Shown in pieces: positions 40,894-63,599 of a stretch of DNA of 64,000 nucleotides (position 1 is its first letter; every line of letters begins with the position of its first letter). The stretch covers positions 50,997 to 114,996 of the IMG/VR virus record IMGVR_UViG_3300045999_011735. One strand, written 5' to 3'. A program made the position numbers and the translations under genes. The notes beneath the pieces were generated by a model. It worked only from the letters and a program-made list of their open reading frames with translations, had not been told where the DNA came from and ran no database searches. This stretch comes from a virus.

Positions 40894-40921
40894 GATTGAT
40901 TTGTTTGTATATAAATATAGA

Positions 40922-45766: not shown

Positions 45767-46678
45767 TTATTTTATTTTTAGTATCTGTGATATAAACGCC
45801 ATGAAGTTAATTTCTTTATCGGCAATACTGTTATTTTGCCATAAATATTGGGCTGAATGGATTGCTATATCGGCAGGTGCATTTGAATATTCAGTTACAC
45901 GTTCGTATAAACCGGTAAATAATGGTACATAATCATTTATGTCTGCGTCTGCTATTGTTTGTCTGATATCAGTCCATGCTGTTTTGCTCTTTGATTTTAG
46001 GTGCTTTATAACGTCATTTAAAACACCTTCAACATTAGCAACTAATGCTCCTGGATTTAAATTATTACTGTCATCTACTGATTGTTGAGATGCATTAATA
46101 ATTTTTCTAATGTCAGGATAATATGTTTTAACTAGAGCAGCAATGTCTGTTAATTCATATTTTACTTTTTCTTGATCTAAAAGCCAAGCTAAATGTTTTG
46201 CAACATCGCCTTTAGCAGGTGGTTCAATATGAAATGTTTGGCATCTGCTCTTAAGTGGATCAATAATACGTTCAGCATAGTTAGCTGTAAGTATAAATCG
46301 TGTTTTTGCAGAATATGTTTCCATTACATTACGCAATGCGGCTTGTGCTTGAGCAGTAATATAATCGGCTTCATCCAATATTACTACTTTAAGTGGATTA
46401 AAACTATTTACAGAGGCAAAATCAACGATTTTATCTCTAATAGTGTCAATACCTCTTTCATCAGATGCGTTAATATACATTATATCACACTTGATATTTT
46501 TAGTAATTAACTTAGCTAATGTTGTTTTACCTGTACCAGGTTTTCCAAATAGCAGTAAATGAGGAATATCATTTGTAGTGATACATTTAGAAATGAAGGC
46601 TTTTACACCCTCATTTCCAACGTATGTATCTAGTGTTTGGCTACGATATTTCTCAACCCATAGGGAATTGTTCGCCAT
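45767..46678 (-). CDS. clamp loader AAA+ subunit (gp44/RFC-like)
   Basis: WVEKYR, GKPGTGKT, NASDERG, DEAD, SRC. Confidence 0.95.
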   Translation of the reverse strand: MANNSLWVEKYRSQTLDTYVGNEGVKAFISKCITTNDIPHLLLFGKPGTGKTTLAKLITKNIKCDIMYINASDERGIDTIRDKIVDFASVNSFNPLKVVILDEADYITAQAQAALRNVMETYSAKTRFILTANYAERIIDPLKSRCQTFHIEPPAKGDVAKHLAWLLDQEKVKYELTDIAALVKTYYPDIRKIINASQQSVDDSNNLNPGALVANVEGVLNDVIKHLKSKSKTAWTDIRQTIADADINDYVPLFTGLYERVTEYSNAPADIAIHSAQYLWQNNSIADKEINFMAFISQILKIK

Positions 46679-48284
46679 CTTTATCTTTTTTAGGTTCGTT
46701 ATAGATTACACATTCAGTCAATAATACAGTACCTGCTACTGAAATGGCATTTTCAAGTGCTGTACGAGCTACTTTCATTGGATCAATAATGCCTGCTTCA
46801 AACATATCTTGTACTGTTTCTGACTTAATGTCATATCCAAATGTACGACCATTTGTAGGGTTTTCCTCTCTAGCTTTTCTAAGGGCAAAGATAATTTCAT
46901 CTTTGTTTTCAATTCCAGCATTTGATAGGATTTTGAGGAATGGAGAACCACAAGCAACATATGCTATTTTCTTTCCTAAATTAAAGTCTTCACCATCATC
47001 TTTCTTAAGTGTGATTTTCTCTCTTGCTTCGAGTAAAGCTACACCACCACCTGGAAGCAATCCTTCTTCAAGTGCTGCTTTAGTTGCTTGTAAAGCGTCA
47101 TCAATGCGGTCTTTCTTTTCTTTCATTTCGGTTTCAGTAGCACCTCCGATATTAATCACAGCTACTCCACCTACTAGTTTTCCAAGGCGTTCTTGCAAAT
47201 GTTCTTTTTCAAATGCAGAAAGTGATTTTCCAATTTGTTCTTTAAGTTCTGCAATACGTGCTTGAACGTTTTCTTCAGAACCACTACCATCTACAATTGT
47301 AGTAGTGTCTTTAGTTACAGTTACTACTCTTGCTTTACCGAACCAGTCTGAATTAAAACGCTCTAGTTTCATTCCTTTTTCAGGTGAAATTACAGTACCA
47401 CCAGTTACAGTTGCAATATCTTCCAAAAGTGCCAAACGACGGTCTCCAAAGTCAGGAGCTTTAACAGCAACTGCCTTTAACATTCCTCTCATTTTATTTA
47501 CAATCAATGTTGATAGTGCTTCACCATCAATATCTTCTGCAATAATTAAGAGTGAACTGTCTGTTTGTGAAGTACCTTCAAGTACTGGAAGTAATTCTTT
47601 AACTGATGTTAAACGTCCATTATAAATTAAGATCAATGGATCTTTTAAAATAGCAGACATTGTACTGTTGTCTGTAGTGAAATACATTGATTTGTATCCT
47701 CTATCAAACTGAATACCTTCTACTGTTTCAAGTGATGTTTCACCTGTTTTACTTTCTTCAACAGTAACAACACCATCCATTCCTACCATATTCATAGCTT
47801 CAGCTACTAATGCTCCAATTTCTTCATCATTATTTGCTGAAATAGTAGCTACTTGCTTGATTTGGTCTTCAGAATTGATGTCACGTTTAATTTCATTTAA
47901 ACCAGCAATTACTTCTTTAGATGCTGCTTCAATACCTTTCTTTACTAAAACCACATTAGTATTAGGATTAATACTTGAGAATGATTTAGTAATTAAGGCA
48001 TTTGCAAGCACAGTTGATGTAGTTGTACCATCACCTGCTTTATCTGCAGTTTTAATAGATGCTTGCTTAATCATTTGAGCACCTATATTTTCAATTGGGT
48101 CTTCAACGTCTTTAAGCGTTTTTGCTACTGTAACACCATCTTTGGTACTACGTACAGTTCCGTATTCATCAATGAATACTACATTACGGCCATAAGGTCC
48201 GAGCGTTGAGCTAACGGCATCAGCCACTTGCTTAATACCATTAGCTAATTTTTCTTTTGCTTCTTGATTGAAAGCTGTTTTCAT
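46653..48284 (-). CDS. groEL: chaperonin GroEL
   Basis: TLGPYGRNV, GDGTTT, KAPDFGDRR, PGGG. Confidence 0.97.
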   Translation of the reverse strand: MKTAFNQEAKEKLANGIKQVADAVSSTLGPYGRNVVFIDEYGTVRSTKDGVTVAKTLKDVEDPIENIGAQMIKQASIKTADKAGDGTTTSTVLANALITKSFSSINPNTNVVLVKKGIEAASKEVIAGLNEIKRDINSEDQIKQVATISANNDEEIGALVAEAMNMVGMDGVVTVEESKTGETSLETVEGIQFDRGYKSMYFTTDNSTMSAILKDPLILIYNGRLTSVKELLPVLEGTSQTDSSLLIIAEDIDGEALSTLIVNKMRGMLKAVAVKAPDFGDRRLALLEDIATVTGGTVISPEKGMKLERFNSDWFGKARVVTVTKDTTTIVDGSGSEENVQARIAELKEQIGKSLSAFEKEHLQERLGKLVGGVAVINIGGATETEMKEKKDRIDDALQATKAALEEGLLPGGGVALLEAREKITLKKDDGEDFNLGKKIAYVACGSPFLKILSNAGIENKDEIIFALRKAREENPTNGRTFGYDIKSETVQDMFEAGIIDPMKVARTALENAISVAGTVLLTECVIYNEPKKDKDGEQFPMG

Positions 48285-50270: not shown

Positions 50271-52856
50271 TTATCCAAACTTAAAGAACTTGTTGATGTT
50301 GTTATTGAATATTGGTTTTCCCCATTTCAAATCCTCATATAGTGTTTCTAATTTGTTTTTTAACATTGAATCAAATAACTGTACTTTATCCAGGTATTTT
50401 TCAATAAATTCTGTAATAAATGGAGGATCATCATATCCATTAAATCCAATAACATCAATTCGATATGGGTTATCTTTTAAATATGCTATAAACATTTTAT
50501 CTCCAATTTGAAATGCATTGTGTTTTTTATCTAACTTCTTAAATTTAAGTAAGTCATTATAGTAAATAGCTGCTTTAGTATTGATAGGACATTTCAATTC
50601 CAATTTAGAGAATATTTCGCCTGCTTGTGGAGGTGAAGCAATATATTCAGCCATATTTTTTAATCCAGTAGGTTTAAGTAGCAAGCGCCAATCTACTGTG
50701 TTGATGCTTTCTCTGAATGTAATGATTTGTTTGTCTATTTCTGGTTTGGGTTTACCAAACATGATATCTTGAATTAATCCCTTTGCAAATTTTCTAAAGT
50801 AAGGAGCAAAGTTAGATTTCATTAGATCTAATCCTTTAATATCTAGTTCTTCAGTTGGTACACCTTCTTTATTTACAATAAATTGAGCGTAACGTCTTTT
50901 ACCTGCAAAGTATCCTCGCTCAAGTACTACCTCTTGCTTTAATTCAAAATAATGAGGACGATCATGTAGATTGAATAATTCTACTACTAGTGTGTTTAAG
51001 TTTTCATTTGCTGCTTTTTGAATTTCAGTAGCAACTTCTAAAACATATTTTACTGCTTCCTCTCTACTACTTAAATCTACATTAGGATGCCTTTTCTGGA
51101 TTAGATCCTTAACTTGAATGAATAGTGAATCGGTATCTGAAGTTACAATATAATCAATACCTTCAGTTTCCATTTGTTTATTCATCCATTTATTTACATA
51201 CTTGATTGATTCTTGAGTTAGTCTTTGTCCTGTAAGTGTAATTGCTTTAGATATGAATTTATGTCCATCAGTGTATCTCCATCCATTAATTGCAAATACA
51301 CCGTAAACGTCATTTAATTTAATTTTATAAGCGTGTTGACGTCTGTTGTAAAAGTCTCCCATAACAGGATCTTTATCTACTTTAAACGCCTTTTTCATTT
51401 TATTTTTATATTCAACACGTTTGTTGAACCAATCACTTAAGATATCACACACTACTGAATTTTTATCTTTACGGAATATTACTCCAGGTGCAGATATAAT
51501 CCAATTTTCACTTTCAATTAATTTTACTATTTTACCTACTGTAATAACAGAGCGTGATATATTTTTATTTGAATTGATTTTCTCAATAGTTACTTCAGTA
51601 TCTGGATTTAGTAGTTTTAATTCTTTTAAAGACCATTGATTGTCATATTTGTCTTTATTTACAATTCTACCTATTAATGTTTCAATACCCATATTCAAGG
51701 ATCGAATAATTGATGGATATAGTGAGGTAAAGTCCAAATCAATAACCCATTCATATAATCCTGGTGTTGGGTCTTTTAAATATCCACCAGCATATTCTTC
51801 CTTAATATCTTTTAAATTAGGATTGTATGTAGTAGGTTTATTTGGTGAAACTATATCTTTACGCTTCAAATACGTTAAAATAGCACCCTCATTAAGTGCT
51901 GTTGACAGATATATTTGTTCGTAAGGTACATGGCACAAGTGAGATACAGTAACAGTTAGATCAATAAATTTAAGTTTATTTTCAAGCGCAACTATAATTT
52001 CAACGTCACGCAAATTATATTCAATAAACTTATTTACATCCTCTTTAAATAATTTATCTAACGATCCTAAGTAATCTACTTTACCTAAATCAACATATTT
52101 CTCTCCAATATTACCTAAGGCATAAGATGGTTCTTGTGTTGTAATATACTTTTTAAACAGCAGCATATAGTCAAGATGGTTTACACCTGCTATAGTAGTA
52201 TATTTTGCCCCTGCAAATTCGCCTTCATCTACCTTTTTAAGTGGAGATAAACGTGCTGCTTGGCTTTCACCCAATACATTTGCAATACGATGGTATAAGT
52301 AAGGAATATCAAAGAACTCACTATTCCATCCTGTTATAATTGTTGGATCTAATTCTTCCCATTTGTCAAGGAACTTATACATTAATTCCTTTTCTGTAAA
52401 GCAAGGTACTACAGTTTTGTTTTCATTTGTAGATTCAGTCATTGTCTTTGCTTCATCTAAAATATAACAGTAATACATTTTAGTACTATTGTCATATAAA
52501 GCAATGGCTGTTAATTTACCTGCTGGATTGCGAACTGTATCTTGAGTAAGTGCACCTGCAATTTCACATTCAATGTCTAAATAAATTATATTTTGATATT
52601 CAGGTGTATCATCTGATTCATAATATGCATCTACAAGTACACGAGTATATTTGTCAACATCACTTTCAAATACATTTGGATCTTTATACCCATATTGTTT
52701 TGTAGGTGATACACGTTGCCCATCTAGTGTTTCGTATTGGCCCCTTTCATCAGCGACATAGCAGGTGGCTCGATATGGAAATTCGAGCCAACCTTTTTTA
52801 TCGTCGCGTAAGTGATATTTCTTTTCTCCTCTATTGTAATAGATTGCTTGATACAT
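50271..52856 (-). CDS. family B DNA polymerase (gp43-like)
   Basis: DIE exonuclease, DFTSLYPSII, KIKLN..YG, SDTDS, KRRY. Confidence 0.97.
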   Translation of the reverse strand: MYQAIYYNRGEKKYHLRDDKKGWLEFPYRATCYVADERGQYETLDGQRVSPTKQYGYKDPNVFESDVDKYTRVLVDAYYESDDTPEYQNIIYLDIECEIAGALTQDTVRNPAGKLTAIALYDNSTKMYYCYILDEAKTMTESTNENKTVVPCFTEKELMYKFLDKWEELDPTIITGWNSEFFDIPYLYHRIANVLGESQAARLSPLKKVDEGEFAGAKYTTIAGVNHLDYMLLFKKYITTQEPSYALGNIGEKYVDLGKVDYLGSLDKLFKEDVNKFIEYNLRDVEIIVALENKLKFIDLTVTVSHLCHVPYEQIYLSTALNEGAILTYLKRKDIVSPNKPTTYNPNLKDIKEEYAGGYLKDPTPGLYEWVIDLDFTSLYPSIIRSLNMGIETLIGRIVNKDKYDNQWSLKELKLLNPDTEVTIEKINSNKNISRSVITVGKIVKLIESENWIISAPGVIFRKDKNSVVCDILSDWFNKRVEYKNKMKKAFKVDKDPVMGDFYNRRQHAYKIKLNDVYGVFAINGWRYTDGHKFISKAITLTGQRLTQESIKYVNKWMNKQMETEGIDYIVTSDTDSLFIQVKDLIQKRHPNVDLSSREEAVKYVLEVATEIQKAANENLNTLVVELFNLHDRPHYFELKQEVVLERGYFAGKRRYAQFIVNKEGVPTEELDIKGLDLMKSNFAPYFRKFAKGLIQDIMFGKPKPEIDKQIITFRESINTVDWRLLLKPTGLKNMAEYIASPPQAGEIFSKLELKCPINTKAAIYYNDLLKFKKLDKKHNAFQIGDKMFIAYLKDNPYRIDVIGFNGYDDPPFITEFIEKYLDKVQLFDSMLKNKLETLYEDLKWGKPIFNNNINKFFKFG

Positions 52857-52879: not shown

Positions 52880-55288
52880 TTAGTTCTCACGTCTTTCTTC
52901 TGGTTTATAATATACAATCCTGTTGTGCCAAACTGGTGCTGCTAATAATATTGCTGGTTTAATATGTCCTCTCATTGTTTCTTGGAACATATATGACATC
53001 CATGTTTGTTCAAATGGATTTGCCCATTCAGTTTCTAGGAACATTTTATAGTTACCTTTTTTGTTTACAATCATAGGCCAGTTTGCATAATATATTTCTC
53101 CGGTTGCATAAGATAATTCACCATTTACTTCAATTCTATCAAATTTAGTTCTTGGAGCGTATGGGTCTAATCCTGATACTGGTAGTTGGTCATAATCAGG
53201 CCATACAAATGTTCTTACTGATTGTGGTACATTATACCAAGATACCTGAATGTTATTGTCCATGTATACTTCAGTATATGATAATTTGAGGAAATCAAAA
53301 TCTTCCTTAGCCATTATTTCATGAATCTTCTTCCACAAGTCAGGAACGAATTTTCTAAATCCATTTCTACAATATCCTGTTTCAGTTGAAGGATAGAACC
53401 CCATATCATCTTCAAAGAATAAGTAATAGTCACTATCTGATTCTTGGAAATGTTTTGCAGCAAATAATCTTCCACCATTAATCCCTTTATTTTCGTTCAT
53501 AATGATATGTTCAAAACCATATTTGTCTGCTACTACTTTATTATCAATTCGTGCTTGTGGATCTGTAGAATTATCAATTAGTATTTTCTTATGTGGTTTT
53601 TCTAGCCAATCAGGTGAATTTGCTTTCCATGTAGCTAATGTGTGTTCAATTTGTTGAGGGAAATTAAACGTAAGCATGTACAATGATGTTTTATCTGTAG
53701 TAGCATTGTATATGCTCTTAGGCAATACATGGGCACGTTTACTATTATTTTCTAATTGTACTTGATCGTCTAATAATGCTTGTACAAACTTAACAATTAA
53801 TCCATTATCATCTAAAGCAAAACGTCTGTAAAGATGTGGTTCAAGATGTGCCATGATACTAAAGATACTTTCTTCAGTACCCATATATCCTTCATCTAAA
53901 GTACCTTGTAACAAAGCATAATAAGTACCATTTGCTTGAGTTAAGAAATCTTTATGTCCACCAAACAATCCACCTCTACAAACATATTCTACTTTTTCAC
54001 GAGCATATCTGTTAATTCCTTTAACTTCAAACCCATGAATTTCATCTACAGGCTGGTAAGGGTAACTTAAGAATAGGAATGTTTTTAAGTATGGGATAAT
54101 TTTATCTAGTGCTCTGTTTTCTGTAAAGTATTTTTCATAAACAGTATTTGTAATACCTGCATCAAGCCATAAGAAATAATTTGTATCAAATACATTCATT
54201 ACTTTAGCATCATGCAACATGAACATTTTTGATTGTACAATTGGATTGTACCATTCAAGTGCTGCTTGAGGACTACTTTTCAACCAACCATTTTCTCCTG
54301 TTTGATTAAGCCATTTTTCACTTGTTCTTATTTGTTGGGTTTTATCCCAAAACGGAGCATAAAAGTTATTTTTAATGTCGTCTAATTCAAAGTTTCTAAC
54401 GTGTGTGTTTTCAGGTTTACGTTTTTCCCAAACTAGATATTCATATTCTTTAGGAATATAAATAAACATTTTTACAGGTATATCTAGGAACTTTCTAAAG
54501 TTTTCAATATAATGACTAAAGTCTCTACCTGGTCTTCCTATGTTCCATAATCCAGTTACTAAGGTTAAATCATCAGTTGTTTCTAATGCTTTAACTGGTT
54601 CAGACATTTGTACTTGTTGTCTTAATTTATCCAACTCATAAAATGCTAATCCTTTTCTAACACCATTATCGTATCCGTCTACTTTAGGTTTTTCCTCAAT
54701 GTAAAATTCAGGTTTAGGAAAATTAAAAGGTGCTGAATGTAAGCATACAGGATAAAAAGCAGCAGCTCCTCTATCCCAATTTGCTTCTACTGTTACAGTA
54801 TTGTCTCTATTCTCATGAGTATAATTTGGATCATTTAAACTATACCAAGTAGTAGTTAAAAGATATTTACATTTTGATTTTAAAATATTTGCTATTGCTT
54901 TTTGTCCACCATCTAAAGTAAGATGTCCCAATACATCTCTTACAATCAATAAATCACCTTCAGGTATTTCAATACCGTCTTGTGTTAAGTCTAATTCTTT
55001 AAAACTAATTATTGAATTTGCAAACTTTTGGTTGTCCTGAATCATTTCAGGTACAATATCACAACCTGTATATTTTTCAAAATTGTATACAATGTCTTTC
55101 ATCCAGTTAAAGTCCCCACAAGGAACATCAACTACAGATTTTATTTCTTTGTCTTTAACTAACTGTTTGATTTGTTGCCTAATAATATCAGTTTCTTCCA
55201 TGGTGCTTCCAGGGCCACTTTTACTTTCAGGCCAACCACCAAATCTCCAGTTTGTGTAAACGTCTTGAAAAGTTTCTTTTAAACTCAT
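52880..55288 (-). CDS. fusion: SAM methyltransferase + HtrL/YibB-like GT + GT2-like domain
   Basis: SGPGS..DVPCGDFNW; LWLDAG..GGLFGG..GTEE; IDNS..FFEDDM. Confidence 0.8.
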   Translation of the reverse strand: MSLKETFQDVYTNWRFGGWPESKSGPGSTMEETDIIRQQIKQLVKDKEIKSVVDVPCGDFNWMKDIVYNFEKYTGCDIVPEMIQDNQKFANSIISFKELDLTQDGIEIPEGDLLIVRDVLGHLTLDGGQKAIANILKSKCKYLLTTTWYSLNDPNYTHENRDNTVTVEANWDRGAAAFYPVCLHSAPFNFPKPEFYIEEKPKVDGYDNGVRKGLAFYELDKLRQQVQMSEPVKALETTDDLTLVTGLWNIGRPGRDFSHYIENFRKFLDIPVKMFIYIPKEYEYLVWEKRKPENTHVRNFELDDIKNNFYAPFWDKTQQIRTSEKWLNQTGENGWLKSSPQAALEWYNPIVQSKMFMLHDAKVMNVFDTNYFLWLDAGITNTVYEKYFTENRALDKIIPYLKTFLFLSYPYQPVDEIHGFEVKGINRYAREKVEYVCRGGLFGGHKDFLTQANGTYYALLQGTLDEGYMGTEESIFSIMAHLEPHLYRRFALDDNGLIVKFVQALLDDQVQLENNSKRAHVLPKSIYNATTDKTSLYMLTFNFPQQIEHTLATWKANSPDWLEKPHKKILIDNSTDPQARIDNKVVADKYGFEHIIMNENKGINGGRLFAAKHFQESDSDYYLFFEDDMGFYPSTETGYCRNGFRKFVPDLWKKIHEIMAKEDFDFLKLSYTEVYMDNNIQVSWYNVPQSVRTFVWPDYDQLPVSGLDPYAPRTKFDRIEVNGELSYATGEIYYANWPMIVNKKGNYKMFLETEWANPFEQTWMSYMFQETMRGHIKPAILLAAPVWHNRIVYYKPEERREN

Positions 55289-56916
55289 AATTTCATGTAT
55301 TTTCTGATGTATTCGTTTTCTATAATTAATGTATCCATTTGTGTGTTTTCAAACACGTTAAATGCATCTTTTAATGTGCTAAGTATAGGCATTCTGTTTA
55401 CGTTAAATGAAGTATTTAATATAACTCCAATGCCTGTTTTTGCTTCAAACATAGTAATTAAATCGTACAACCATGGGTTTTGTTCTCTAGTTACTGTTTG
55501 AACACGAGCAGTATTGTCAACGTGTGTAATTGCTGCTAATTTTTCTCTCCATTCCTCACGTACAATTGGAGCATAAGACATCCATCTTGCATCTCTATTC
55601 CATTCAAAGTATTTATTTACATCTTCTAAACGTACAACTGGAGCAAATGGTCTATACCATTCTCTATGTTTTACTTTAGCGTTTAAGATATCTTTCATTT
55701 CTGGGAATGAAGGATTACAAATAATACTTCTATTGCCTAATGCTCTTGGTCCATGTTCACCTCTATCTCTTACAACGCCTATAATTTTACCTTCAGCTAA
55801 ATCATCAATTACTTCATCCATGTTTAATTCATCTTTCCACCATGATGATTGGTTAAAGTAGTATTGGAACATATATTTGTCCATTATAGGTAAACCAGCA
55901 TATGTAATATCTATTGGCTCTTCAGGTCTTAAAAATCCAGCCATTAAACCAACTGCTAAACCACAGTCATTAGGGTTAGGACCTACAAATACATCTTTAC
56001 CAAACTCATTTACTAAACGAGTATTTAATAAAATGTTTAATCCACATCCACCTGTAATGCCAATAGGCAAATCAGGGAATAAATCAAAATAAGGTTTTGC
56101 TATTTCTAAGAAACATTCTTCAAATGCTCTTTGTGAAGTTGCTGCTATATCCCAAGCAAGTTGTCCTTCTAATCTGTTATGTTCATCAAACGTAACACCT
56201 ATGCTTTCACCTAGTGGGATCATTTTTTCTAAGTAAGTATGTCCTTGAGGATCGCTTTTATAATATTCTTTAAAAGCATCCATCCATTCTTCTCTTACAT
56301 TACCGTATGAAACTAGACCCATTATCTTTCCAGCATATACTAAGTTTCCTTCACTTAATCCTTCAAAACTAATATCTTTTAAATAGTGTCCTATCAACAT
56401 ATAAGGAAAACCTAAGTCATAGTCAATCCAATGTTCTCCCATTGTTGGGCAAGCTAATCGTTCTAAAAGTTTTGGATGTTGTCCTCTTTGACAGTAGAAT
56501 ATATTAAATTTTCCATCATCACCTCCTCCATCAAATGAAAATACTAATGCTTCTTTATGTGGGGATTGATAAAAGGTACCAGCAGCGTGGGCCTGATGGT
56601 GATGATATGAAATATGCCTATCAGCTGGTATAACTTCATGTGTGCGTAGTAATACATTATCTACTACTAGATCGGTGTTCATTGAAATACAATGTTCAAA
56701 ATGTTCAATGCCGTATTCTTCTTTTACAAATGCAAGAATACTCTTTATAATTTCTACAAAGTCTCTATAATTTTTATGTTTTGGGCATTTATATTGAGCA
56801 AGTCCTGAGTTTTTATACCCTAAAAAGCGTTCAACTTCAATTACAGATATAATTTTTCCGTCTTGCTCAATAGCAAAAGCAGCGTTGTGGGACCCGTAGT
56901 ATGCTATATTTGCCAT
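55285..56916 (-). CDS. O-carbamoyltransferase (NodU/CmcH/TobZ family)
   Basis: HHQAHA, DGGGD, GKIMGL, GPRALGNRS, RPFAP, HVDNTARVQT, LNTSFN. Confidence 0.95.
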   Translation of the reverse strand: MANIAYYGSHNAAFAIEQDGKIISVIEVERFLGYKNSGLAQYKCPKHKNYRDFVEIIKSILAFVKEEYGIEHFEHCISMNTDLVVDNVLLRTHEVIPADRHISYHHHQAHAAGTFYQSPHKEALVFSFDGGGDDGKFNIFYCQRGQHPKLLERLACPTMGEHWIDYDLGFPYMLIGHYLKDISFEGLSEGNLVYAGKIMGLVSYGNVREEWMDAFKEYYKSDPQGHTYLEKMIPLGESIGVTFDEHNRLEGQLAWDIAATSQRAFEECFLEIAKPYFDLFPDLPIGITGGCGLNILLNTRLVNEFGKDVFVGPNPNDCGLAVGLMAGFLRPEEPIDITYAGLPIMDKYMFQYYFNQSSWWKDELNMDEVIDDLAEGKIIGVVRDRGEHGPRALGNRSIICNPSFPEMKDILNAKVKHREWYRPFAPVVRLEDVNKYFEWNRDARWMSYAPIVREEWREKLAAITHVDNTARVQTVTREQNPWLYDLITMFEAKTGIGVILNTSFNVNRMPILSTLKDAFNVFENTQMDTLIIENEYIRKYMKL

Positions 56917-56917
56917 A

Positions 56918-57979
56918 TTAATAAGGTTCTGTGTGAGGCCATGCGTTGCGGTCCTCTAATATTTGTTTTAAATCTTTGTTTTTTTCAATAAAGTCTTCTT
57001 CACTATCACCAGGTATAAACTTAGTTCCTAATCCTGGAGCCCCTCCATTTAATGGGAGAAAATATCTATCTGTAAAATGAATTTGTCTGTTGTAAACAGT
57101 ATTAGGGAAATTCAATACTTTCATTTGTTGATAGACATTAGTAGTTGCTACAGGCATATAATCACATGTCATATATCCTCCACACTGTTGATGTTGTCTT
57201 AAAAATGTGTTTGAATGGAATAATCTAATAACTTCATTCCAGGTTTCAAAATACTTTTGTACTTTTTCTGGGGATTCGAAATGGTAGTATCTAAAAGGAC
57301 CTTCAGTTAAAGGTAATTCAGTAATTACTTGTGGTTTAACTACATTATCTGCTTTATATAATTCATGAAGAACAATAGAACATGCTTGTAAAGCACCAAA
57401 TGATTGTCCCATTCCCATAGCCATTGACCATACAAAGTCAAATGTACCTTTTTGTTGGTTGAATGTATCTTGTCTTATTCCTAACAATTCATAAACACAT
57501 CCCTTCATTGAATTTACAGGCGAATCAAATTCAGCCCAAAATTGTTCTTCAGTTAATTCACCACTTACTATTTTATCGTAACGTAATTTTACATCACCAT
57601 CCATGAATACAACTTTATTGTATCCTAATTTTGCAATAGTTGGAAATGAAAATCTGTGTAGTGAATATGAAAATAGTTTTCCCTTAGATAAAGATTCCAT
57701 GTATTCATCACCATATTGTTTTGGATCTGTAGTAACAGCTGGAATAAATTCTAATTCTTTAGACCATTCATATTCTTGTCTTGCTTCGTGTATATTTACA
57801 ATTGCTTTAATTTTACCCGTTTGTTCTGCAAATTCAGTAAAATCTTCAGGCATGTCAGTTAAAACAACATAATCCATCATGTTGTCATAACCCATTTCAA
57901 TTGCATCAAGAATATTTAATTTAACGCGCTTGCGATACGAAGGGCCAAAACCCCAAAGTGAAACAATTGGTTTATCCAT
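56918..57979 (-). CDS. putative GT-A glycosyltransferase
   Basis: VLTD, FMDGD (DxD); context. Confidence 0.6.
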   Translation of the reverse strand: MDKPIVSLWGFGPSYRKRVKLNILDAIEMGYDNMMDYVVLTDMPEDFTEFAEQTGKIKAIVNIHEARQEYEWSKELEFIPAVTTDPKQYGDEYMESLSKGKLFSYSLHRFSFPTIAKLGYNKVVFMDGDVKLRYDKIVSGELTEEQFWAEFDSPVNSMKGCVYELLGIRQDTFNQQKGTFDFVWSMAMGMGQSFGALQACSIVLHELYKADNVVKPQVITELPLTEGPFRYYHFESPEKVQKYFETWNEVIRLFHSNTFLRQHQQCGGYMTCDYMPVATTNVYQQMKVLNFPNTVYNRQIHFTDRYFLPLNGGAPGLGTKFIPGDSEEDFIEKNKDLKQILEDRNAWPHTEPY

Positions 57980-57982
57980 AAC

Positions 57983-58921
57983 TTATTCTAATATTGTTGG
58001 GTCAAAAACTTTAAAAAATTCGTCTACTATTTTATTCGGTAATAAATATTTGTCATAGTAATCTATATTATTTCTAGATATAGACATTAACAAATCATCA
58101 TTATTGATGTTTTTCTCTACACTATCAATAAAATATTCTGCTATTCTTTCTAATGGTATCCCTGGGTATATCATAAAAGCTAAATCAGAAGGAGGAGTAG
58201 CAGCTATGTAATTTTGTCCAGGATATAATCCTTTATACATAGGTGTTAATGCTTCTGATCGGATAATGGGAATACCTAGCCCCATTGATTCAAAATCTCT
58301 AACACACCATTCTCCAGCTCCATTTAAGGATAATGTAAGAGCATATTCATTCATTTTTTGAAAATATGTTTCTCTAAAATACCCATCTTCTCTTCCATAA
58401 ACATCAAATAAAGGATGTTTACGTAATATATCAGCTACTACTCGTCTAGATTCATATAAACCCCCTATAAAACATGCTTTACGTATTTTTTTAGTTGGAT
58501 CATATGGCTCTCTAAATTGTTTAATGTAGTCGTAAATATAATAAAATTCTAATGGATATAAAAATGGAGTAAATTTAGCATTATACTTTTCCATTATTTG
58601 TTCTGGGGTCATATAAACACCTAATCCTCCAATTATATGAACAATATCAAACATTTCCCATCCTTCATGCCTAAGCATTTCTAATGTTCTATCCCAAAAA
58701 CTTACTAATGTTGTTTTTCTATTAGCATCATTAGTAATCTTCATAGCTGCTGTTCCTGAACGTGTAGATGGTCCTTGAGATATAGGGAACAGTTCTTGTA
58801 CGTTTACTGCTTTTTTAGTTATATTAGGGTAGTGAAGATTCAGTTCAAGAAATATTCTATCAAATACATACTGAAATCCTTGATTTCCCATTCCAAAAGG
58901 GTATTCTACTATTAAGTGCAT
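57983..58921 (-). CDS. putative GT-B/exostosin-like glycosyltransferase
   Basis: FIGG...R, LSLNGAG..CVRDFESMGLG. Confidence 0.7.
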   Translation of the reverse strand: MHLIVEYPFGMGNQGFQYVFDRIFLELNLHYPNITKKAVNVQELFPISQGPSTRSGTAAMKITNDANRKTTLVSFWDRTLEMLRHEGWEMFDIVHIIGGLGVYMTPEQIMEKYNAKFTPFLYPLEFYYIYDYIKQFREPYDPTKKIRKACFIGGLYESRRVVADILRKHPLFDVYGREDGYFRETYFQKMNEYALTLSLNGAGEWCVRDFESMGLGIPIIRSEALTPMYKGLYPGQNYIAATPPSDLAFMIYPGIPLERIAEYFIDSVEKNINNDDLLMSISRNNIDYYDKYLLPNKIVDEFFKVFDPTILE

Positions 58922-60213
58922 TACTGGGGTTTGTAAGTATAGTTAACTAGTCCTTCAATTCGTTCAGCCCATCCTTGAGATTTACTATGTGCCCAAATAA
59001 CCCAACGATGTGGAATTTTATCAGTTAAGAAGAATTTTTCTTCATTATACCATCCTGGTGATAACATTATATTTTTTATTTGGTGTTCTTGATAATCTTC
59101 TCTCCATATTTCCTTTCCCTCTGCATCATCAAAAGCACAAACCCAAAAATCATAGTCATCATGTTTAAATTGAGCTTTATCAAATTGAACTAAATGATAA
59201 AATGAAAACATAAATGAGTTTTCCCATTCTTCATCATTTTCAATTACAGGATTAGGAGGATATTTGTTATCATAAGTATAACGTTGTACTGAACGCTTTT
59301 TAAAATGAATACCAGCATACTTCTCATAGTCGCGAAGTGTACGCTCAGTTCCTAAATCGTATCCTGTTAAATCAAACCCATTATCTTCTGTGCGTAGTAA
59401 TTGTCTAATTTTAGATCTAGCAATAGTTTGTTGTGACCACCAATCTTCACCTCGTTTATGTTGATCATCCCAAATTAATATGTTGCTTCTTTCTTCACGC
59501 ATCGTAGCATGCCATACTACTAATTTGTGAGGATGGAAGAAATCATATCCGTGAGTATAAGAACGTACTGTTAAATTAAGTTCTTCACCACTAAAGTAAA
59601 TATCTTGGTCATGTAAAATTGTTTTTCCCCAATGTCCATCTGCAAAGCAAAAATGGCCTGATAAGAATCTTGATGGTGCTGGTTCAGTCATATTCTGCCA
59701 TCCATGTAATAATGAAGGGCGAATGAATATAGTACCATGCGGATAAAAGCAAGCAAATGTTTGTTGCCAAGGCTCCATTGTTCTATCAGCAGGGTCATTA
59801 AACGGGTTATAATAAGGTAAATATGCCGCTAAAATCGGTTTTTTAACACCTTTAGCTTTAAGTTGGTCATGCATTTCAATTAATGTAACATCCCAACCTT
59901 CAGCAAATCTATGGTGTGAATCAAGTTGACAGATATATTCTTCATCTTTCAACATTGTATTAATTTGGTAGCGAGCATAAGGCAATCCTTTGGCTTCAGT
60001 ATAATGAATATCCATTATTCTAAAACGAGGATCATCTCTAAATTCATCTACATTATCAAACCCATCTTCAGGATTAAATTGTCTACAAATACCAAATACT
60101 AATCTATTAGGATAAGTAGCGTTTTCAAGTGCTGATTTAATAGTAGGAACCAATTCTGGTTCTCTATAGGCAGGTAAATGGATAAAAATTTTTCTTGAGT
60201 TTGCTTTTTTCAT
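58921..60213 (-). CDS. GT60/Gnt1-like protein GlcNAc-transferase
   Basis: IFIHLPAYREPEL, QLDSHHRF, GEE..L.VR.YTHGYD, LGTERTL. Confidence 0.85.
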   Translation of the reverse strand: MKKANSRKIFIHLPAYREPELVPTIKSALENATYPNRLVFGICRQFNPEDGFDNVDEFRDDPRFRIMDIHYTEAKGLPYARYQINTMLKDEEYICQLDSHHRFAEGWDVTLIEMHDQLKAKGVKKPILAAYLPYYNPFNDPADRTMEPWQQTFACFYPHGTIFIRPSLLHGWQNMTEPAPSRFLSGHFCFADGHWGKTILHDQDIYFSGEELNLTVRSYTHGYDFFHPHKLVVWHATMREERSNILIWDDQHKRGEDWWSQQTIARSKIRQLLRTEDNGFDLTGYDLGTERTLRDYEKYAGIHFKKRSVQRYTYDNKYPPNPVIENDEEWENSFMFSFYHLVQFDKAQFKHDDYDFWVCAFDDAEGKEIWREDYQEHQIKNIMLSPGWYNEEKFFLTDKIPHRWVIWAHSKSQGWAERIEGLVNYTYKPQ

Positions 60214-61496
60214 TATCTAGGTATTTCTTGTTCAATAATTTCAGTATTCCAGTCTTTAGATACACTATGAGGCCATAGTTTCCAACTATGAGGCATTTCA
60301 TCACATTCAAATGTTCTCCAAATGTGATAGAAATGATCATCTTTAGGAGATGAAGCTATAATATCTTTAACTTCACTTTCACTAGCATCCATTCTATTAA
60401 TTTCATTACCATTTTTGTCTTTAAAGGCAATCACCCAACAATCATAATCGTTTTCAGGTAAAGATCCTTTATAAACATCTATACAGTATTTAAATCTTTT
60501 TACATAATTATCTTCCCATTCTTTTTCATTTTTGAATGGTATAGGAAGCATTTTTTGTTCTGCTGTATGTTTTTGTACTCGTTTTCCTTTAAAATCTACT
60601 CCAACGTGACGTTCAAATTCAGATAATGGACGTTCTTTACCTAAATCAAACCCTACAAAATCAAGTCCTTCTCTACTTTCATCATCTATTCCAAATAATG
60701 CTCTATATTTTCTAAATGAAAATTTATCTAAAGGAGAAAATTGATGATCATCCCAATGTCGTTGTTTTCCTTGCCTTGTATACTCATGCCAAATTATTGG
60801 TTTATGAGGATGGAATAAATCATATCCGTGTGTAAATGCTCTAGCAGATATTGATGTTTCTTCTCCATGAAAGTAAAAATCAGGATCATGTGGTACATCA
60901 TGTACAAATGATCCTAAAGTAAAACCAAAGTGTCCTGAATAAAATCTTGCTGGGATGGGTTCAGTGTGTTTTTGCCAATTGTCAACATGACAAGGAACAA
61001 TGAATATAGGACCTTCAGGCATAAATCTATCATAATTAGTATGCCATACTTCTATATTACGTCCATCAGGATCATTATTTGGAAAGTATCCAGGTAAATA
61101 AGCGGTTAGTAGTGGTTTTTTATGGCCTTTCTTTTGAAGACCTTTTAACATATCAATTAGTGTTTCATCCCAGTTTTTAGTAAAACGGTGATGTGAATCT
61201 AATTGTAATGTGTATGTTTCACCATTATAATATCTTTGCAATCTGTTTCGAGCCCAACAAACGCCTTTAGCATCTTTGTAGTGAATATCTATAATTTTAA
61301 AACGAGGATCATCTAAATATTCAGTTAAGTGATCCCATTCGTCTTCTTTAGCATGTTGCCATGCAATGCATATTCTAAGATTCTCAGGCCATTTTGCATT
61401 ATCAAGCATGTCCTTAATTGTAGGACGTAATTCGGGATCTCGATATGAAGCTATTTGGACGAATATTGTTTCGTCGTGAGTTTTTTTTCTTGCCAT
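60213..61496 (-). CDS. GT60/Gnt1-like protein GlcNAc-transferase (paralog)
   Basis: TIFVQIASYRDPEL, GVCWAR, QLDSHHRF, GEETSISARAFTHGYD. Confidence 0.88.
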   Translation of the reverse strand: MARKKTHDETIFVQIASYRDPELRPTIKDMLDNAKWPENLRICIAWQHAKEDEWDHLTEYLDDPRFKIIDIHYKDAKGVCWARNRLQRYYNGETYTLQLDSHHRFTKNWDETLIDMLKGLQKKGHKKPLLTAYLPGYFPNNDPDGRNIEVWHTNYDRFMPEGPIFIVPCHVDNWQKHTEPIPARFYSGHFGFTLGSFVHDVPHDPDFYFHGEETSISARAFTHGYDLFHPHKPIIWHEYTRQGKQRHWDDHQFSPLDKFSFRKYRALFGIDDESREGLDFVGFDLGKERPLSEFERHVGVDFKGKRVQKHTAEQKMLPIPFKNEKEWEDNYVKRFKYCIDVYKGSLPENDYDCWVIAFKDKNGNEINRMDASESEVKDIIASSPKDDHFYHIWRTFECDEMPHSWKLWPHSVSKDWNTEIIEQEIPR

Positions 61497-61554
61497 AACA
61501 ATTTATACAACAATTATTTGCTATACATATATACTAAGATGAAAATAAATATAA

Positions 61555-61576
61555 GGGGGACCTTTTGGGTCCCCCA
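61555..61576. terminator. GC hairpin after the fiber gene
   Basis: GGGGGACC-TTTTG-GGTCCCCC. Confidence 0.65.
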
Positions 61577-61604
61577 GTTTTTATTAAATCTTATGTAAAG
61601 TAAA

Positions 61605-63242
61605 TTACACTGTTCTTATCAAAACAAAACTTCCACTTCTATATAAACCACCAAGTGGCACACCACCAGTTGCAGCGGCAGCATCATCTACGAAATTAAG
61701 ACTTTGTGATACTGCAGTTAAAACTACAAAGCTAGAAGCAGCAAGAGATCCTGATATATCTAATGTGTAATTAGGTAATGATTTATTGATACCTACTTTA
61801 GCATTAGTCATTGAACCTGAAAAAGGATCCAGATTAAAAGGATCATAAGCATAAGATCCTGTTGCAAAAATTACACCACCTAAGTTAATAGAATCTCTTC
61901 TATTATTTTCTAAAGTAATGTTAGTTCCGATTATGATATTATTAGCTCCAATTCCAGCACCTGATACTCTTTTACCAGCTTGCCATCCTATTAAGTTTGA
62001 GAAAGAAGAGCTTGCTGCACCCTGTCCAGCACTACGTCCTATGAAATTGGACTGTTCTGCTAAAGTTGCTTGATCGCCAGCAAAATCTCCTATAAAATTT
62101 GATTGTTGAGCGTACGTTGCACCTTGTCCAGCTGCATTTCCAATAAAGTTTGAGGTACCAGCATTTGAAGCATTTTGACCAGCACTGGTTCCTATAAAGT
62201 TTGAACCAGCAGAACTTGCTGCATTTTGACCTGCTTGGCGTCCTATGAAGTTTGATTGTAGAGCATTTGTTGCACCATTACCAGCATTGTAACCTATAAG
62301 GTTTGCATAAGAAGCATTTGTTGCATTAAAACCAGCATAATATCCTGAGAAGTTTGAATAGGAAGCATTTGTAGCATATCCACCAGCTCCTTCTCCCATA
62401 AAAATAGAATCATTAGCAACCGGTGTATCTACTCCTGCTGTAGTGCCAAAAATAATTGAACCTGTTCTATTAAAATTGGTGCCAGCAAGAGGATTATTTG
62501 AGTATAAGGTAGAACCTAATACTGAGATTGGAACATTTAGTGCAAATGAAGCAGATCTTGCATTAGTAGCAAATGAAGCAGATGTAGCATTAGTAGCAAA
62601 TGAAGCAGATGTAGCATTAGTAGCAAATGAAGCAGATGTAGCATTAGTAGCAAATGAAGCTGTACCTTGAAGTGAACCTGTAATGCCACTAGTTACATCT
62701 AATGAACCTGTAATTTGGACTGAACCTAAAATATTAGTTCCATTATCTGCTACAATATCAATATGTTTAACTGAACCATAATTATCAACTTTAACATATG
62801 TTATATCATCACCAATAAATAATTGACCGCCACTTGCTGTGATATGTGTGTCGGTTGGTGATGTATTATATACTTGTAAATACCTAACATCATTTGCGTC
62901 AGGTTGTAAAATTAAACTTCCTGTTCCTTTAATTGTATTTGTTACAGTTATTGAACCACTTATCGTTTGATCACCTTTAAATGTATTTGAACCAGTTGTA
63001 GCGAAGCTACCTGTATTAATTGCTCCACCAGCATTTAATGCAAATGATGCAGTTAATGCATAAGAAGCACTTGTAGCATTATTAGCAAATGAAGCACTAA
63101 TAGATGAAGTTACTTGTGGTAAAGAACCTGCTAAATTAGCTATAGTAAGTTGAGAGGTTGTACCAGAAGCTACAATAGGTAGTACAGCATTATTAGCTGC
63201 TGAGGACGCTGAGGGTAATTGGGATATTTTTACGTCAGACAT
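61605..63242 (-). CDS. tail/capsid fiber or adhesin-like virion protein
   Basis: KISQLP N-terminus, ATNATSASF repeats, 14-aa SNFIG..AG beta-helix repeats, GGVPLGGLYR C-terminus. Confidence 0.8.
   Translation of the reverse strand: MSDVKISQLPSASSAANNAVLPIVASGTTSQLTIANLAGSLPQVTSSISASFANNATSASYALTASFALNAGGAINTGSFATTGSNTFKGDQTISGSITVTNTIKGTGSLILQPDANDVRYLQVYNTSPTDTHITASGGQLFIGDDITYVKVDNYGSVKHIDIVADNGTNILGSVQITGSLDVTSGITGSLQGTASFATNATSASFATNATSASFATNATSASFATNARSASFALNVPISVLGSTLYSNNPLAGTNFNRTGSIIFGTTAGVDTPVANDSIFMGEGAGGYATNASYSNFSGYYAGFNATNASYANLIGYNAGNGATNALQSNFIGRQAGQNAASSAGSNFIGTSAGQNASNAGTSNFIGNAAGQGATYAQQSNFIGDFAGDQATLAEQSNFIGRSAGQGAASSSFSNLIGWQAGKRVSGAGIGANNIIIGTNITLENNRRDSINLGGVIFATGSYAYDPFNLDPFSGSMTNAKVGINKSLPNYTLDISGSLAASSFVVLTAVSQSLNFVDDAAAATGGVPLGGLYRSGSFVLIRTV
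62542..62660 (-). repeat. 27-bp coding tandem repeat (ATNATSASF)
   Basis: GCATTAGTAGCAAATGAAGCAGATGTA three perfect copies plus partial flanks. Confidence 0.9.
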
Positions 63243-63246
63243 TTTG

Positions 63247-63516
63247 TTAAAGTATTATATTATTATTGTTTTCAGTAGTTAAACGATTGTCATTTTCTGT
63301 GGCTAAATATGAAGTAACACTTTCTTCTCCTGGAGGAAAATAAGGACCAGATGATGGTGATTGTGGAGGAACAGCACCTAAAACATTCAATCTTCTAGCT
63401 GCTCTTCCTGTTACTGCTTCTAAAAATACACTATTTGTATATTGTTTTGTATATACATTAGGTATTGATAGGTTTGATTGAGAATTTTGTAATCCTTGGT
63501 TTTTTCGTGTACTCAT
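63247..63516 (-). CDS. small virion-associated protein
   Basis: C-terminal LATENDNRLTTENNNNII motif; upstream of the fiber gene. Confidence 0.6.
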   Translation of the reverse strand: MSTRKNQGLQNSQSNLSIPNVYTKQYTNSVFLEAVTGRAARRLNVLGAVPPQSPSSGPYFPPGEESVTSYLATENDNRLTTENNNNIIL

Positions 63517-63599
63517 TTTTTATAGCGTTGCGTATAAATATGTAAAGTAAAATGCCCCTCGTTGTGAGGAGCATTAAAAATTAAAACTCTATTTGTAAA

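Follow-up and report, generated by a model that had tools for sequence, protein, structure and literature searches.

A lake-water phage of the T4 type carries a six-gene operon that probably encodes a soluble, cytoplasmic pathway of protein O-glycosylation for virion appendage proteins, a reading to which we give a probability of about 0.55. The operon occupies positions 52880-61496, on the minus strand, of the window, that is, the whole 64,000-nucleotide stretch of DNA that was analyzed. Comparison of the sequences of hundreds of related phages suggests that it sugar-coats "mucin-like" tail proteins made of Thr/Pro repeats, and not the fiber protein encoded next to it. A sequence-only reading of the same DNA had proposed virion-protein glycosylation with that fiber as the acceptor. 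Comparative data, protein folds, enzyme solubility and gene linkage strongly favor the cytoplasmic glycosylation part of this proposal, but the acceptor named in it is probably wrong.

Organization of the operon

The operon contains, in order, GT60-1, GT60-2, a 312-aa protein, a 353-aa protein, an O-carbamoyltransferase and a methyltransferase-GT-A-GT-A fusion, with overlaps or gaps of at most 4 nt. Pfam, PHROG and alignment confirm the earlier observation that two paralogous GT60/Gnt1-like enzymes head an operon beside a repeat-bearing fiber. None of the glyco-enzymes of the window has a transmembrane segment, and the whole enzyme set is soluble.

The fiber cassette, also entirely on the minus strand, is headed by an 89-aa ORF of no assigned family (63247-63516), followed by the 545-aa tail-fiber-type protein (61605-63242). 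Between the fiber stop codon and the GT60-1 start, a terminator-like hairpin (61555-61575, minus strand; stem of 8-9 bp with 7 G-C pairs, then a T-rich tail) is GC-rich in a genome of 31% GC. A second GC-rich hairpin (63551-63575) is found upstream of the 89-aa ORF. Hence, the fiber cassette and the glycosyltransferase operon are apparently transcribed separately. The fiber-GT60 junction is spanned by contigs from other lake runs, which excludes an assembly artefact as the cause of the adjacency. The fiber is immediately upstream of the operon, as had been described, but the two do not appear to form one unit.

The GT60 pair

GT60-1 (427 aa, 60213-61496, minus strand) and GT60-2 (430 aa, 58921-60213, minus strand) are 42% identical end to end and both match PHROG 24687 over the full length of that PHROG. 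Their assignment to GT60, checked by HMM search, is well borne out: they match Pfam PF11397 "GlcNAc" with E = 7.5e-70 (237 bits) and E = 1.3e-53 (183 bits), respectively, for a curated cut-off of 21 bits. Both have the same two-domain build. In GT60-1, the PF11397 GT-A catalytic domain (residues ~1-310) carries the invariant residues D100-S-H102-H-R-F and W236-H237, forming a DxH...H motif, and DSHHRF is retained in GT60-2. The C-terminal domain of about 110 aa (residues ~318-427; window 60216-60545, minus strand) is conserved in homologues. The DYD..AF..R.D motif pointed out in the first reading corresponds to D350, Y351, D352, F358, R368, and D370, all invariant across 15 diverse homologues. 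The domain has no recognized fold match and is not a ricin-type lectin. A tandem GT60 pair occurs in 25 of 80 viral loci, the copy 1-copy 2 order being kept in 24 of these 25.

GT60 is described as the family of protist pp-alpha-GlcNAc-transferases that initiate mucin-type glycans, and as having no C-terminal targeting domain (PMC8724618). The phage enzymes share the Pfam family and the GT-A fold with DxH with the eukaryotic CAZy GT60 members (pp-alpha-GlcNAc-transferases of Dictyostelium and Trypanosoma cruzi; Skp1 Gnt1). Like the cytoplasmic Skp1 Gnt1, they are soluble and have no signal anchor. They differ in being phage-encoded and in carrying their own C-terminal domain of ~110 aa, and their donor and linkage are putative. 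The available part of the phage genome, which is 67% complete, yielded no prolyl hydroxylase. The AF2 model of GT60-1 (pLDDT 85) finds, as its top ~48 matches among PDB folds, only ppGalNAc-transferases (E about 1e-9, 11-18% identity). These GT27 enzymes of animals and apicomplexans also combine a catalytic GT-A domain with a C-terminal accessory domain and also exist as multiple paralogues. In contrast with the phage proteins, they reside in the Golgi.

In the proposed pathway, the GT60-like pair would start the glycan by attaching a HexNAc-type sugar, donated by a UDP-sugar, to Ser/Thr residues of Thr/Pro-repeat (mucin-like) segments. The ~110-aa domain may act as a targeting domain, a role played by the ricin lectin domain in animal ppGalNAc-transferases. 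The two conserved paralogues may split the work, either by modifying different sites or as an initiator and a follow-up enzyme.

The genomic position of the operon raises another idea, namely that its enzymes glycosylate and carbamoylate modified bases of the phage DNA. A DNA polymerase gene adjoins the operon, a dCTP-deaminase-like gene is close by, and the corresponding operons of phages XacN1 and RAS14 are near polymerase and RNase H genes. Moreover, DNA-glycosylating GT-A enzymes are known in phages; these are similar to JGT and TarP and show linkage to 5mYOX or ThyS (bioRxiv 10.1101/2023.12.21.572611). However, GT60-1 matches ppGalNAc-transferases and not such enzymes, no genes of the 5mYOX/ThyS type recur among the neighbors in 80 viral loci, and the 115 kb available for this 67% complete genome encode ThyX but no thymidylate-synthase-type hydroxymethylase. 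DNA hypermodification is thus very improbable.

Other enzymes of the operon

The sequence-only reading placed further glycosyltransferases downstream of the GT60 pair. The 312-aa protein (57983-58921, minus strand) is a lead in this direction: it has no match in Pfam, PHROG or PDB sequences, but its ESM Atlas neighbors (Glyco_trans_1_2, RXYLT1_C, and GT90; TM 0.63-0.70) make it a probable GT-B-like glycosyltransferase. The GT60 loci that contain a divergent homologue number 20 among viruses and 4 among bacteria. The 353-aa protein (56918-57979, minus strand), with homologues in nine viral GT60 operons, matched nothing in Pfam, PHROGs, a PDB profile search or hhalign, so that a glycosyltransferase assignment is unsupported here.

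The last two genes were correctly recognized at the outset, as their Pfam and PHROG domains show. The O-carbamoyltransferase of the NodU/CmcH type (55285-56916, minus strand; Carbam_trans_C 2.5e-63, Carbam_trans_N 8.5e-22, PHROG 1601) is presumed to cap the glycan. Sixteen viral and four bacterial GT60 loci contain it, and it adjoins GT60 in XacN1 and RAS14. The 802-aa fusion (52880-55288, minus strand; PHROG 3382 and HtrL_YibB) is composed of a SAM methyltransferase domain (residues ~20-200, 54689-55288), a first GT-A domain corresponding to HtrL_YibB (residues 240-516, 53741-54571) and a second GT-A domain (residues 530-802, 52883-53701). The AF2 model of residues 240-802 (pLDDT 89) shows the two GT-A domains and a linker, and the folds that it matches best belong to dual GT-A enzymes that work on protein glycans or polymerize: Mimivirus R699 (the top match), LH3, K4 chondroitin polymerase, LARGE1, COLGALT1, and PmHS2. 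This region accompanies GT60 in 66/80 viral and 29/80 bacterial loci and is even fused to it, in Rosetta-stone fashion, in loci L040 and L045. GT60 and the dual GT-A protein are a conserved core pair.

Two tandem GT-A domains per chain are also seen in LARGE1, which elongates the glycan of a mucin-like domain, in the Escherichia coli K4 chondroitin polymerase and in the Pasteurella multocida heparosan synthase. The whole-chain TM is nevertheless only 0.18-0.30 and the identity about 10%, and a polymerizing activity of the phage fusion is pure conjecture. The GT-B-like 312-aa protein and both GT-A domains may extend the glycan, perhaps building a repeating disaccharide; the methyltransferase domain and the carbamoyltransferase would then cap the chain.

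A second sugar block at 30463-43662 (minus strand) encodes, according to Pfam, nucleotide-sugar enzymes, GT2 and GT4 glycosyltransferases and methyltransferases. It possibly supplies donors or extension enzymes for the glycan of the operon. The GT60 operon of one other locus, L112, contains homologues of two genes of the block, 35595-36878 (DegT) and 34888-35598 (RmlD-like); beyond this locus, the link is unproven. The previous idea of one glycan built by about 20 enzymes is thus only hinted at.

Soluble enzymes of this kind could also act as effectors, modifying host proteins or small molecules during takeover. Bacterial homologues in T6SS clusters, adjoining a fimbrial-domain protein, agree with this possibility. 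Several enzymes for extension and capping, together with the co-occurrence with Thr/Pro repeats described below, fit a structural glycan better, and we consider an effector role highly unlikely.

Candidate acceptors

The acceptor in this phage is most likely a 1612-aa protein with (TP[ST][IV]T)n repeats (S+T 0.47, P 0.16), encoded outside the window in the baseplate module (G000:C1:35900-40738 = L169:2401-7239). This module is headed by a baseplate wedge protein whose N-terminal part is found at positions 1-399 (minus strand; PHROG 6, 5e-15). Apart from the wedge, neither the Thr/Pro-repeat protein nor the surrounding module proteins matched a named structural family. A heavily glycosylated domain of the PTVTPT type is known in gp72 of T. 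cruzi (PMC3630849). The phage Thr/Pro repeats look much like it and, as candidate acceptors, they recall protist mucin domains. The repeat gene is ~63 kb from the operon, which stands beside the DNA polymerase gene; this arrangement, like the missing structural matches around the repeat gene, speaks against the O-glycosylation reading.

Relatives carry the GT60 operon as an insertion at the slot of the Thr/Pro-repeat protein in the baseplate module, and two GT60 genes of locus L099 flank Thr/Pro-repeat genes. Of 40 viral loci kept after dereplication, 17 have, directly upstream of the operon, a gene with S+T of at least 0.28, usually one for a (TPSVT)n protein, vs. 17 of 640 background ORFs (odds ratio 27, p = 3.6e-14; because related loci share ancestry, this p-value and the next overstate independence). 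Within the baseplate-module family, a Thr/Pro-repeat ORF is present in 8/8 GT60-positive and 0/7 GT60-negative records, the latter at least 58% complete (Fisher p = 1.6e-4). Among complete genomes, four lack GT60, the fusion and Thr/Pro-repeat ORFs alike, and one combines GT60 and the fusion with five Thr/Pro-repeat ORFs. Six fragments with Thr/Pro repeats and without GT60 run against this pattern but are only 12-54% complete. Thus, the co-occurrence expected for a GT60 acceptor is observed with Thr/Pro-repeat proteins; that with SASFA-repeat fibers, which had been predicted, fails.

The 545-aa fiber itself is an unlikely main acceptor. It belongs to a tail-fibre family, with 1062 mosaic relatives, several having Peptidase_S74 or Mtd_N domains. 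It has exposed Ser/Thr-rich repeats, and its S+T of 0.23 is the maximum of the window. A 27-nt tandem repeat of 4.6 copies encodes (SASFATNAT)n (62537-62660, minus strand; TRF, 96% matches), and seven 17-aa repeats of the SNFIG type are also present. A natural variant, P0147, has exactly one 9-aa unit fewer. The fiber also has 16 N-x-S/T sites, but the N-A-(T/S) sequons invoked earlier are irrelevant to an O-glycosyltransferase family. It lies directly upstream of the operon, behind the terminator-like hairpin, and is poor in Pro (0.02), unlike the proteins that track with GT60. No homologue is present in 160 GT60 loci, the closest relatives of the operon lack the fiber, and complete genomes G016 and G019 carry a homologue with neither GT60 nor the fusion. 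The fiber could serve as a secondary target at most.

Adjacency has its own limits. Accessory genes are known to insert preferentially in tail-fibre regions, and such a hot spot could by itself explain the adjacency. The closest relatives (L085-L087) have no Ser/Thr-rich gene flanking the operon. XacN1, a cultured jumbo phage, has a baseplate wedge and a giant fibre module next to its GT60-carbamoyltransferase operon, but the neighboring proteins are not Ser/Thr-rich.

Insertion at such a hot spot would also account for the position of the operon if, together with the sugar block at 30-43 kb, it served to make or alter host LPS, capsule or EPS, for example to block superinfection. The dual GT-A fold resembles the capsule polymerases K4CP and PmHS2, which are soluble or peripheral enzymes, HtrL_YibB is named for an LPS-locus gene, and PHROGs classes the operon genes as "moron, auxiliary metabolic gene". 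Furthermore, the operon is outside the structural module in this phage, and many bacteria have GT60 and the dual GT-A protein with no Ser/Thr-rich neighbors, these being found in only about 1 to 3 of 80 bacterial loci. However, the glyco-enzymes of the window have no membrane segment, polypeptides are the substrates of the initiator family and of its nearest folds, and host-envelope remodelling leaves unexplained the strict co-occurrence of Thr/Pro repeats with GT60 genes and their interleaving. We regard it as unlikely, though the most serious competitor of O-glycosylation of appendage proteins.

Relationship to other virion glycosylation systems

Chlorovirus PBCV-1 A064R is a multi-domain GT-GT-methyltransferase fusion, as is the fusion of the operon. 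Giant viruses also resemble this phage in performing virus-encoded, host-independent cytoplasmic protein glycosylation, as with the Mimivirus collagen glucosyltransferase R699. They differ in that they infect eukaryotes, use collagen hydroxylysine or capsid Asn as acceptors and have no GT60 initiator. In mycobacteriophages, phage glycosyltransferases are proposed to decorate virion proteins, with glycans reported at the C-termini of capsid and tail-tube subunits (Freeman et al., 2023, as summarized in PMC12619734). Compared with that account, the present system has a GT60 initiator, an added carbamoyltransferase and a dual GT-A fusion, and it would act on very long Thr/Pro-repeat proteins encoded in the baseplate module. 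We judge the operon to be kin to the virion glycosylation systems of phages or giant viruses, with new features.

Two GT60 enzymes with an additional C-terminal domain

The six-gene operon at 52880-61496 is headed by two paralogous genes on the minus strand, GT60-1 (60213-61496, 427 aa) and GT60-2 (58921-60213, 430 aa), whose products are 42% identical over their full length. The sequence-only reading had taken both for GT60/Gnt1-like enzymes sharing an extra C-terminal domain, and profile searches and alignment bear this out. Both proteins match Pfam PF11397 (GlcNAc, CAZy GT60) far above the curated cut-off of 21 bits, with 236.6 bits (7.5e-70) for GT60-1 and 183.1 bits (1.3e-53) for GT60-2, over profile positions 1-44 and 95-351, and both match PHROG 24687 end to end. 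In an alignment of the two paralogues with 13 diverse homologues (15 sequences), a D100-S-H102-H-R-F motif and a later W236-H237 pair are invariant. The extra domain is found in both paralogues, and its ~110 residues are conserved in the same alignment, including D350-Y-D352, F358, R368 and D370. The AF2 model of GT60-1 (pLDDT 85) has a GT-A fold, and its top ~48 PDB matches are all polypeptide GalNAc-transferases (GT27), the enzymes that start animal mucin-type O-glycans; a PDB sequence search with the same protein gave no meaningful match. The profile score over the catalytic domain, the modelled GT-A fold, the putative DxH metal-binding motif and the downstream His all point to membership of the GT60 family.

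GT60 has been described as a related protist family of pp-alpha-GlcNAc-transferases without a ricin-type C-terminal or targeting domain (PMC8724618). In contrast, the phage and bacterial clade carries its own conserved domain of ~110 aa. The ESM Atlas gave no usable match to this domain. Searched alone against 1.8 billion representatives, it matched small ORFs and the C-terminal ends of GT60 proteins; further matches to ankyrin/tenascin giants were rejected as repeat-driven artefacts. In a single case, the database protein P0317 (513 aa), the domain is N-terminal and the protein weakly matches GT11 (fucosyltransferase-like), an arrangement that suggests a portable module for glycosyltransferases.

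Enzymes of this kind could in principle glycosylate DNA. The phage GT-A enzymes known to modify DNA resemble JGT/TarP and are linked to 5mYOX/TET or ThyS (bioRxiv 10.1101/2023.12.21.572611), whereas the operon has neither that linkage nor that fold. Indeed, the top folds of GT60-1 are not JGT or TarP, and the 115 kb of the record (67% complete) contain ThyX only and no hydroxymethylase-type thymidylate synthase (PF00303), which makes DNA an unlikely target. A prolyl-4-hydroxylase (PF13640) is likewise absent from these 115 kb (67% complete). Glycosylation of virion proteins is the reading that we prefer.

The operon and its genomic setting

The window covers the 3' 64 kb of the 115-kb IMG/VR record, with a GC content of ~31% and essentially all window genes on the minus strand. 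The phage is recurrent in lake-water metagenomes; the runs containing the region are lake-water DNA metagenomes, no RNA dataset is listed with it, and no cultured phage matched the region in a megablast search. T4-like replication genes flank the operon, namely a family B polymerase (50271-52856), a sliding-clamp-like gene, clamp-loader subunits and a chaperonin, the last of GroEL type and lying at 46653-48284 among the replication genes (Cpn60_TCP1, 5e-68). Elsewhere in the window, a 209-aa DegT-family aminotransferase (38748-39377), matched at profile positions 24-98 only, adjoins a full-length DegT of 427 aa (35595-36878).

The genes after the GT60 pair overlap or abut one another. They encode a 312-aa protein (57983-58921), a 353-aa protein (56918-57979), a NodU/CmcH-type carbamoyltransferase (55285-56916; Carbam_trans_N 78.5 bits and Carbam_trans_C 213.1 bits, both above threshold; PHROG 1601) and an 802-aa fusion (52880-55288) in which a SAM methyltransferase is joined to an HtrL_YibB domain and one more domain. 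From residue 240 to residue 802, the fusion is modelled as two GT-A domains (pLDDT 89), and the best fold matches belong to enzymes with a dual GT-A build: Mimivirus R699 collagen glucosyltransferase, human LH3, COLGALT1, LARGE1, K4 chondroitin polymerase and heparosan synthase. In the dual GT-A alignment A2, W135-x-D137 is invariant in domain 1 and E387-D388-D389 in domain 2, so that each predicted GT-A domain would possess an acidic metal/nucleotide motif. The 312-aa and 353-aa proteins have no family match, and PDB sequence searches with their families returned nothing meaningful; for the 312-aa protein, the ESM Atlas gave leads only, to Glyco_trans_1_2, RXYLT1_C and GT90 folds. With hhalign, the 312-aa family was unrelated to a GT4 enzyme of the window, and the 353-aa family to the dual GT-A part.

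Capsule polymerases, too, fit the dual GT-A fold, which is in keeping with the main rival to virion glycosylation, remodelling of the host envelope by the operon. That alternative leaves unexplained the absence of a membrane or export component; none of the operon proteins described above has a hydrophobic segment.

Two family-less proteins encoded among the early genes may be further members of the pathway, judging from where their homologues lie. Homologues of the product of 14903-15814 are inside the GT60 operon of the viral loci L087, L112 and L143, and a homologue of the product of 25013-26023, which has an N-terminal hydrophobic segment, is inside that of L086.

Distribution and conserved partners

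The ~420-aa two-domain GT60 protein accounts for more than 7700 clusters among the scored candidates. An alignment-based scan of genome contigs located it at no fewer than 587 loci on viral contigs and 559 in bacterial genomes from many phyla; a single-protein scan of the same contigs gave nothing. Among cultured phages, it occurs only in four jumbo phages of Xanthomonas and Stenotrophomonas.

Partners were counted by comparing the window proteins with the ORFs of 80 viral and 80 bacterial GT60 loci. GT60 is found together with the dual GT-A part of the fusion in 66/80 viral and 29/80 bacterial loci, on the same strand and often with overlapping stop and start codons. The 312-aa family is found in 20/80 viral and 4/80 bacterial loci, the carbamoyltransferase in 16/80 and 4/80, and the 353-aa family in 9/80 and 0/80, respectively. 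A tandem GT60 pair is present in 25 viral loci, and its order is kept in 24 of the 25, which indicates that the duplication is old and maintained. Natural fusions also occur, joining GT60 to an HtrL-type GT-A domain (L040 8001-10114, 704 aa), to both GT-A domains (L045 17-3649, 1210 aa) or to a second GT60 (L153 9992-12604, 870 aa).

In 11 betaproteobacterial loci (L027, L043, L047, L048, L057, L060, L061, L063, L069, L072 and L083, at ~5.3-8.0 kb in each), from Achromobacter, Burkholderia, Ralstonia, Cupriavidus, Paraburkholderia and Paraherbaspirillum, the gene directly preceding that of the GT60 homologue encodes a protein with a Fimbrial/MrkD-like domain, and both genes lie within a type VI secretion cluster (TssF, ImpA_N and Rhs nearby). 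This arrangement may represent a bacterial adhesin-glycosylation pair. In 15 viral loci, subtilase and trypsin-like protease genes lie a few kb from the GT60 module, beside Thr/Pro-rich ORFs on the opposite strand (for example, L095 14572-20258, L117 14642-19875 and L119 13994-18250).

Thr/Pro-repeat proteins and the baseplate module

In many viral loci, the operon is directly preceded by the gene for a very long protein with (T/S)P(S/T)(V/I)T-type repeats (550-1757 aa, S+T 0.32-0.48, Pro 0.10-0.20). Two such genes stand between two GT60 genes in L099, and another follows the fusion in L145, L149 and L160 and, in weaker form, in L161 and L164 (S+T 0.23-0.24). Dereplication at 90% GT60 identity left 68 groups. 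An upstream flank with S+T of at least 0.28 was found in 17/40 dereplicated loci vs. 17/640 other ORFs of the same loci (odds ratio 27, Fisher p=3.6e-14, values inflated by shared ancestry). Many bacterial loci are without Ser/Thr-rich neighbours, a point in favor of host-envelope remodelling, which leaves the strict Thr/Pro-repeat association unexplained.

The phage studied here encodes its own Thr/Pro-repeat protein outside the window (G000:C1:35900-40738, equal to L169:2401-7239; 1612 aa, S+T 0.47, Pro 0.16), with repeats made of diverged 18-nt-based units. The first gene of its module codes for a baseplate wedge protein (PHROG 6). Window positions 1-399 encode the N-terminal part of this wedge protein, and from there the module continues downstream, out of the window. 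The gene order, in aa, is 604 (wedge), 362, 117, 1531, 220, 340, 333, 1612 (Thr/Pro-repeat), 246, 116 and 142. Pfam and PHROGs searches with the Thr/Pro-repeat proteins and the 220-, 340-, 333- and 1531-aa neighbours found nothing except PHROG 15511 (function unknown). The same module is present in L096, L097, L099, L102-L105, L112, L116, L149 and L160, and in these relatives the GT60 operon is embedded towards the end of the baseplate and fibre module, inserted at exactly the Thr/Pro-repeat slot and followed by the homologues of the 116- and 142-aa genes. In the cultured jumbo phage XacN1, a GT60-carbamoyltransferase operon abuts a baseplate wedge and giant-ORF module. In the present phage, the operon lies beside the fiber gene, ~63 kb from the baseplate module. 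The genetic linkage of glycosyltransferases to structural genes that is expected for phage virion glycosylation is thus seen in the gene order of the relatives and of XacN1. The 220-aa gene was not found in five records of the closest operon relatives, which is uninformative since these are just 38-64% complete.

This 220-aa gene served as the anchor for a co-occurrence test in 80 further loci, whose whole records were then searched for PF11397. A Thr/Pro-repeat ORF was defined by a length of at least 200 aa, S+T of at least 0.28 and P of at least 0.10. Such an ORF is found in 8/8 GT60-positive records (this genome, G006, G011 and the records of L177, L182, L186, L199 and L206) and in 0/7 GT60-negative records at least 58% complete (Fisher p=1.6e-4). 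Six fragments, 12-54% complete, have a Thr/Pro-repeat ORF without GT60; when they are counted against the hypothesis, p becomes 0.018. Five complete genomes were examined in full. In G011, GT60 and the fusion are present, and five Thr/Pro-repeat ORFs adjoin GT60 across the permuted contig ends; in G014, G015, G016 and G019, all three are absent. The GT60-free G014 and G019 encode giant proteins of 1084-2094 aa (G014:C1:45144-60078, G019:C1:99161-105445) with S+T of 0.37-0.50 and almost no proline, whose composition marks them as a different kind of Ser/Thr-rich appendage. The complete genomes therefore indicate that it is the Pro-containing, mucin-like type that tracks GT60, and not Ser/Thr-richness in general.

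The adjoining fiber

The gene upstream of GT60-1 (61605-63242, minus strand) encodes a 545-aa protein in which a 27-nt repeat, present 4.6 times, gives (SASFATNAT)n, together with seven 17-aa SNFIG-type repeats and 16 N-x-S/T sites. It has 1062 mosaic relatives, and since some of these carry Peptidase_S74 and Mtd_N domains, "fiber" is a fair name. The repeat (62537-62660) is polymorphic, a 98%-identical database variant (P0147) being shorter by exactly one 9-aa unit, and the contigs of all four lake runs break there. The fiber-GT60 junction is bridged by contigs from other lake runs.

The observation of tandem GT60s, an operon and a repeat fiber is confirmed, and the adjacency is real, with one correction: GC-rich hairpins at 61555-61575 and 63551-63575 bracket a cassette made of the fiber gene and an 89-aa ORF (63247-63516). 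By its sequence, the GT operon has its own upstream region, apart from this cassette. That fibre regions are insertion hot spots would also suit an operon acting on the host envelope. For virion glycosylation, the proposal that the SASFA fiber is the acceptor is probably wrong. No fiber homologue occurs in the 80 viral and 80 bacterial GT60 loci, homologues are present in the GT60-free G016 and G019, and the proposed check of co-occurrence, now run, shows that the fiber family does not track GT60. The Thr/Pro-repeat protein of the baseplate module is the better candidate.

A proposed pathway and its implications

Comparative genomics and structure prediction support the system-level part of the original proposal, that is, glycosylation of virion proteins by virus-encoded enzymes, with an acceptor that is probably not the one named. 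The pointers to a polypeptide Ser/Thr (or Hyp) acceptor are indirect, namely that GT60 co-occurs with Thr/Pro-repeat proteins and lies next to their genes. More specifically, and tentatively (at a probability of about 0.4), we propose a self-contained pathway of mucin-type O-glycosylation, operating in the cytoplasm and encoded by many uncultured freshwater phages. On the very long baseplate proteins with Thr/Pro repeats, GT60, with its own targeting domain, would initiate glycans; the fusion, through its dual GT-A part, would extend them, and methyl and carbamoyl groups would cap them, making these proteins phage "mucins". In prokaryotic viruses, such a pathway would correspond to the mucin-type glycosylation of eukaryotes, to which it may be related by evolution.

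Virion glycosylation by virus-encoded enzymes is documented mainly in mycobacteriophages and giant viruses of eukaryotes. Literature searches for GT60/Gnt1 or mucin-like proteins of phages turned up no earlier account of either, nor of the two paired. GT60, regarded as the eukaryote-type mucin initiator, is a conserved module in viral contigs and bacteria, and in phages it tracks Thr/Pro-repeat proteins. The presence of the operon in four cultured jumbo phages makes the question directly testable. If confirmed, the pathway would make available, for mucin-type glycoengineering, soluble enzymes that bacteria can express, and would bear on the origin of the GT60/GT27 families. It would also define a widespread class of glycan-coated phage appendages, whose coats could alter how the phages adsorb, resist proteases, stick to organic matter or evade recognition by the host.
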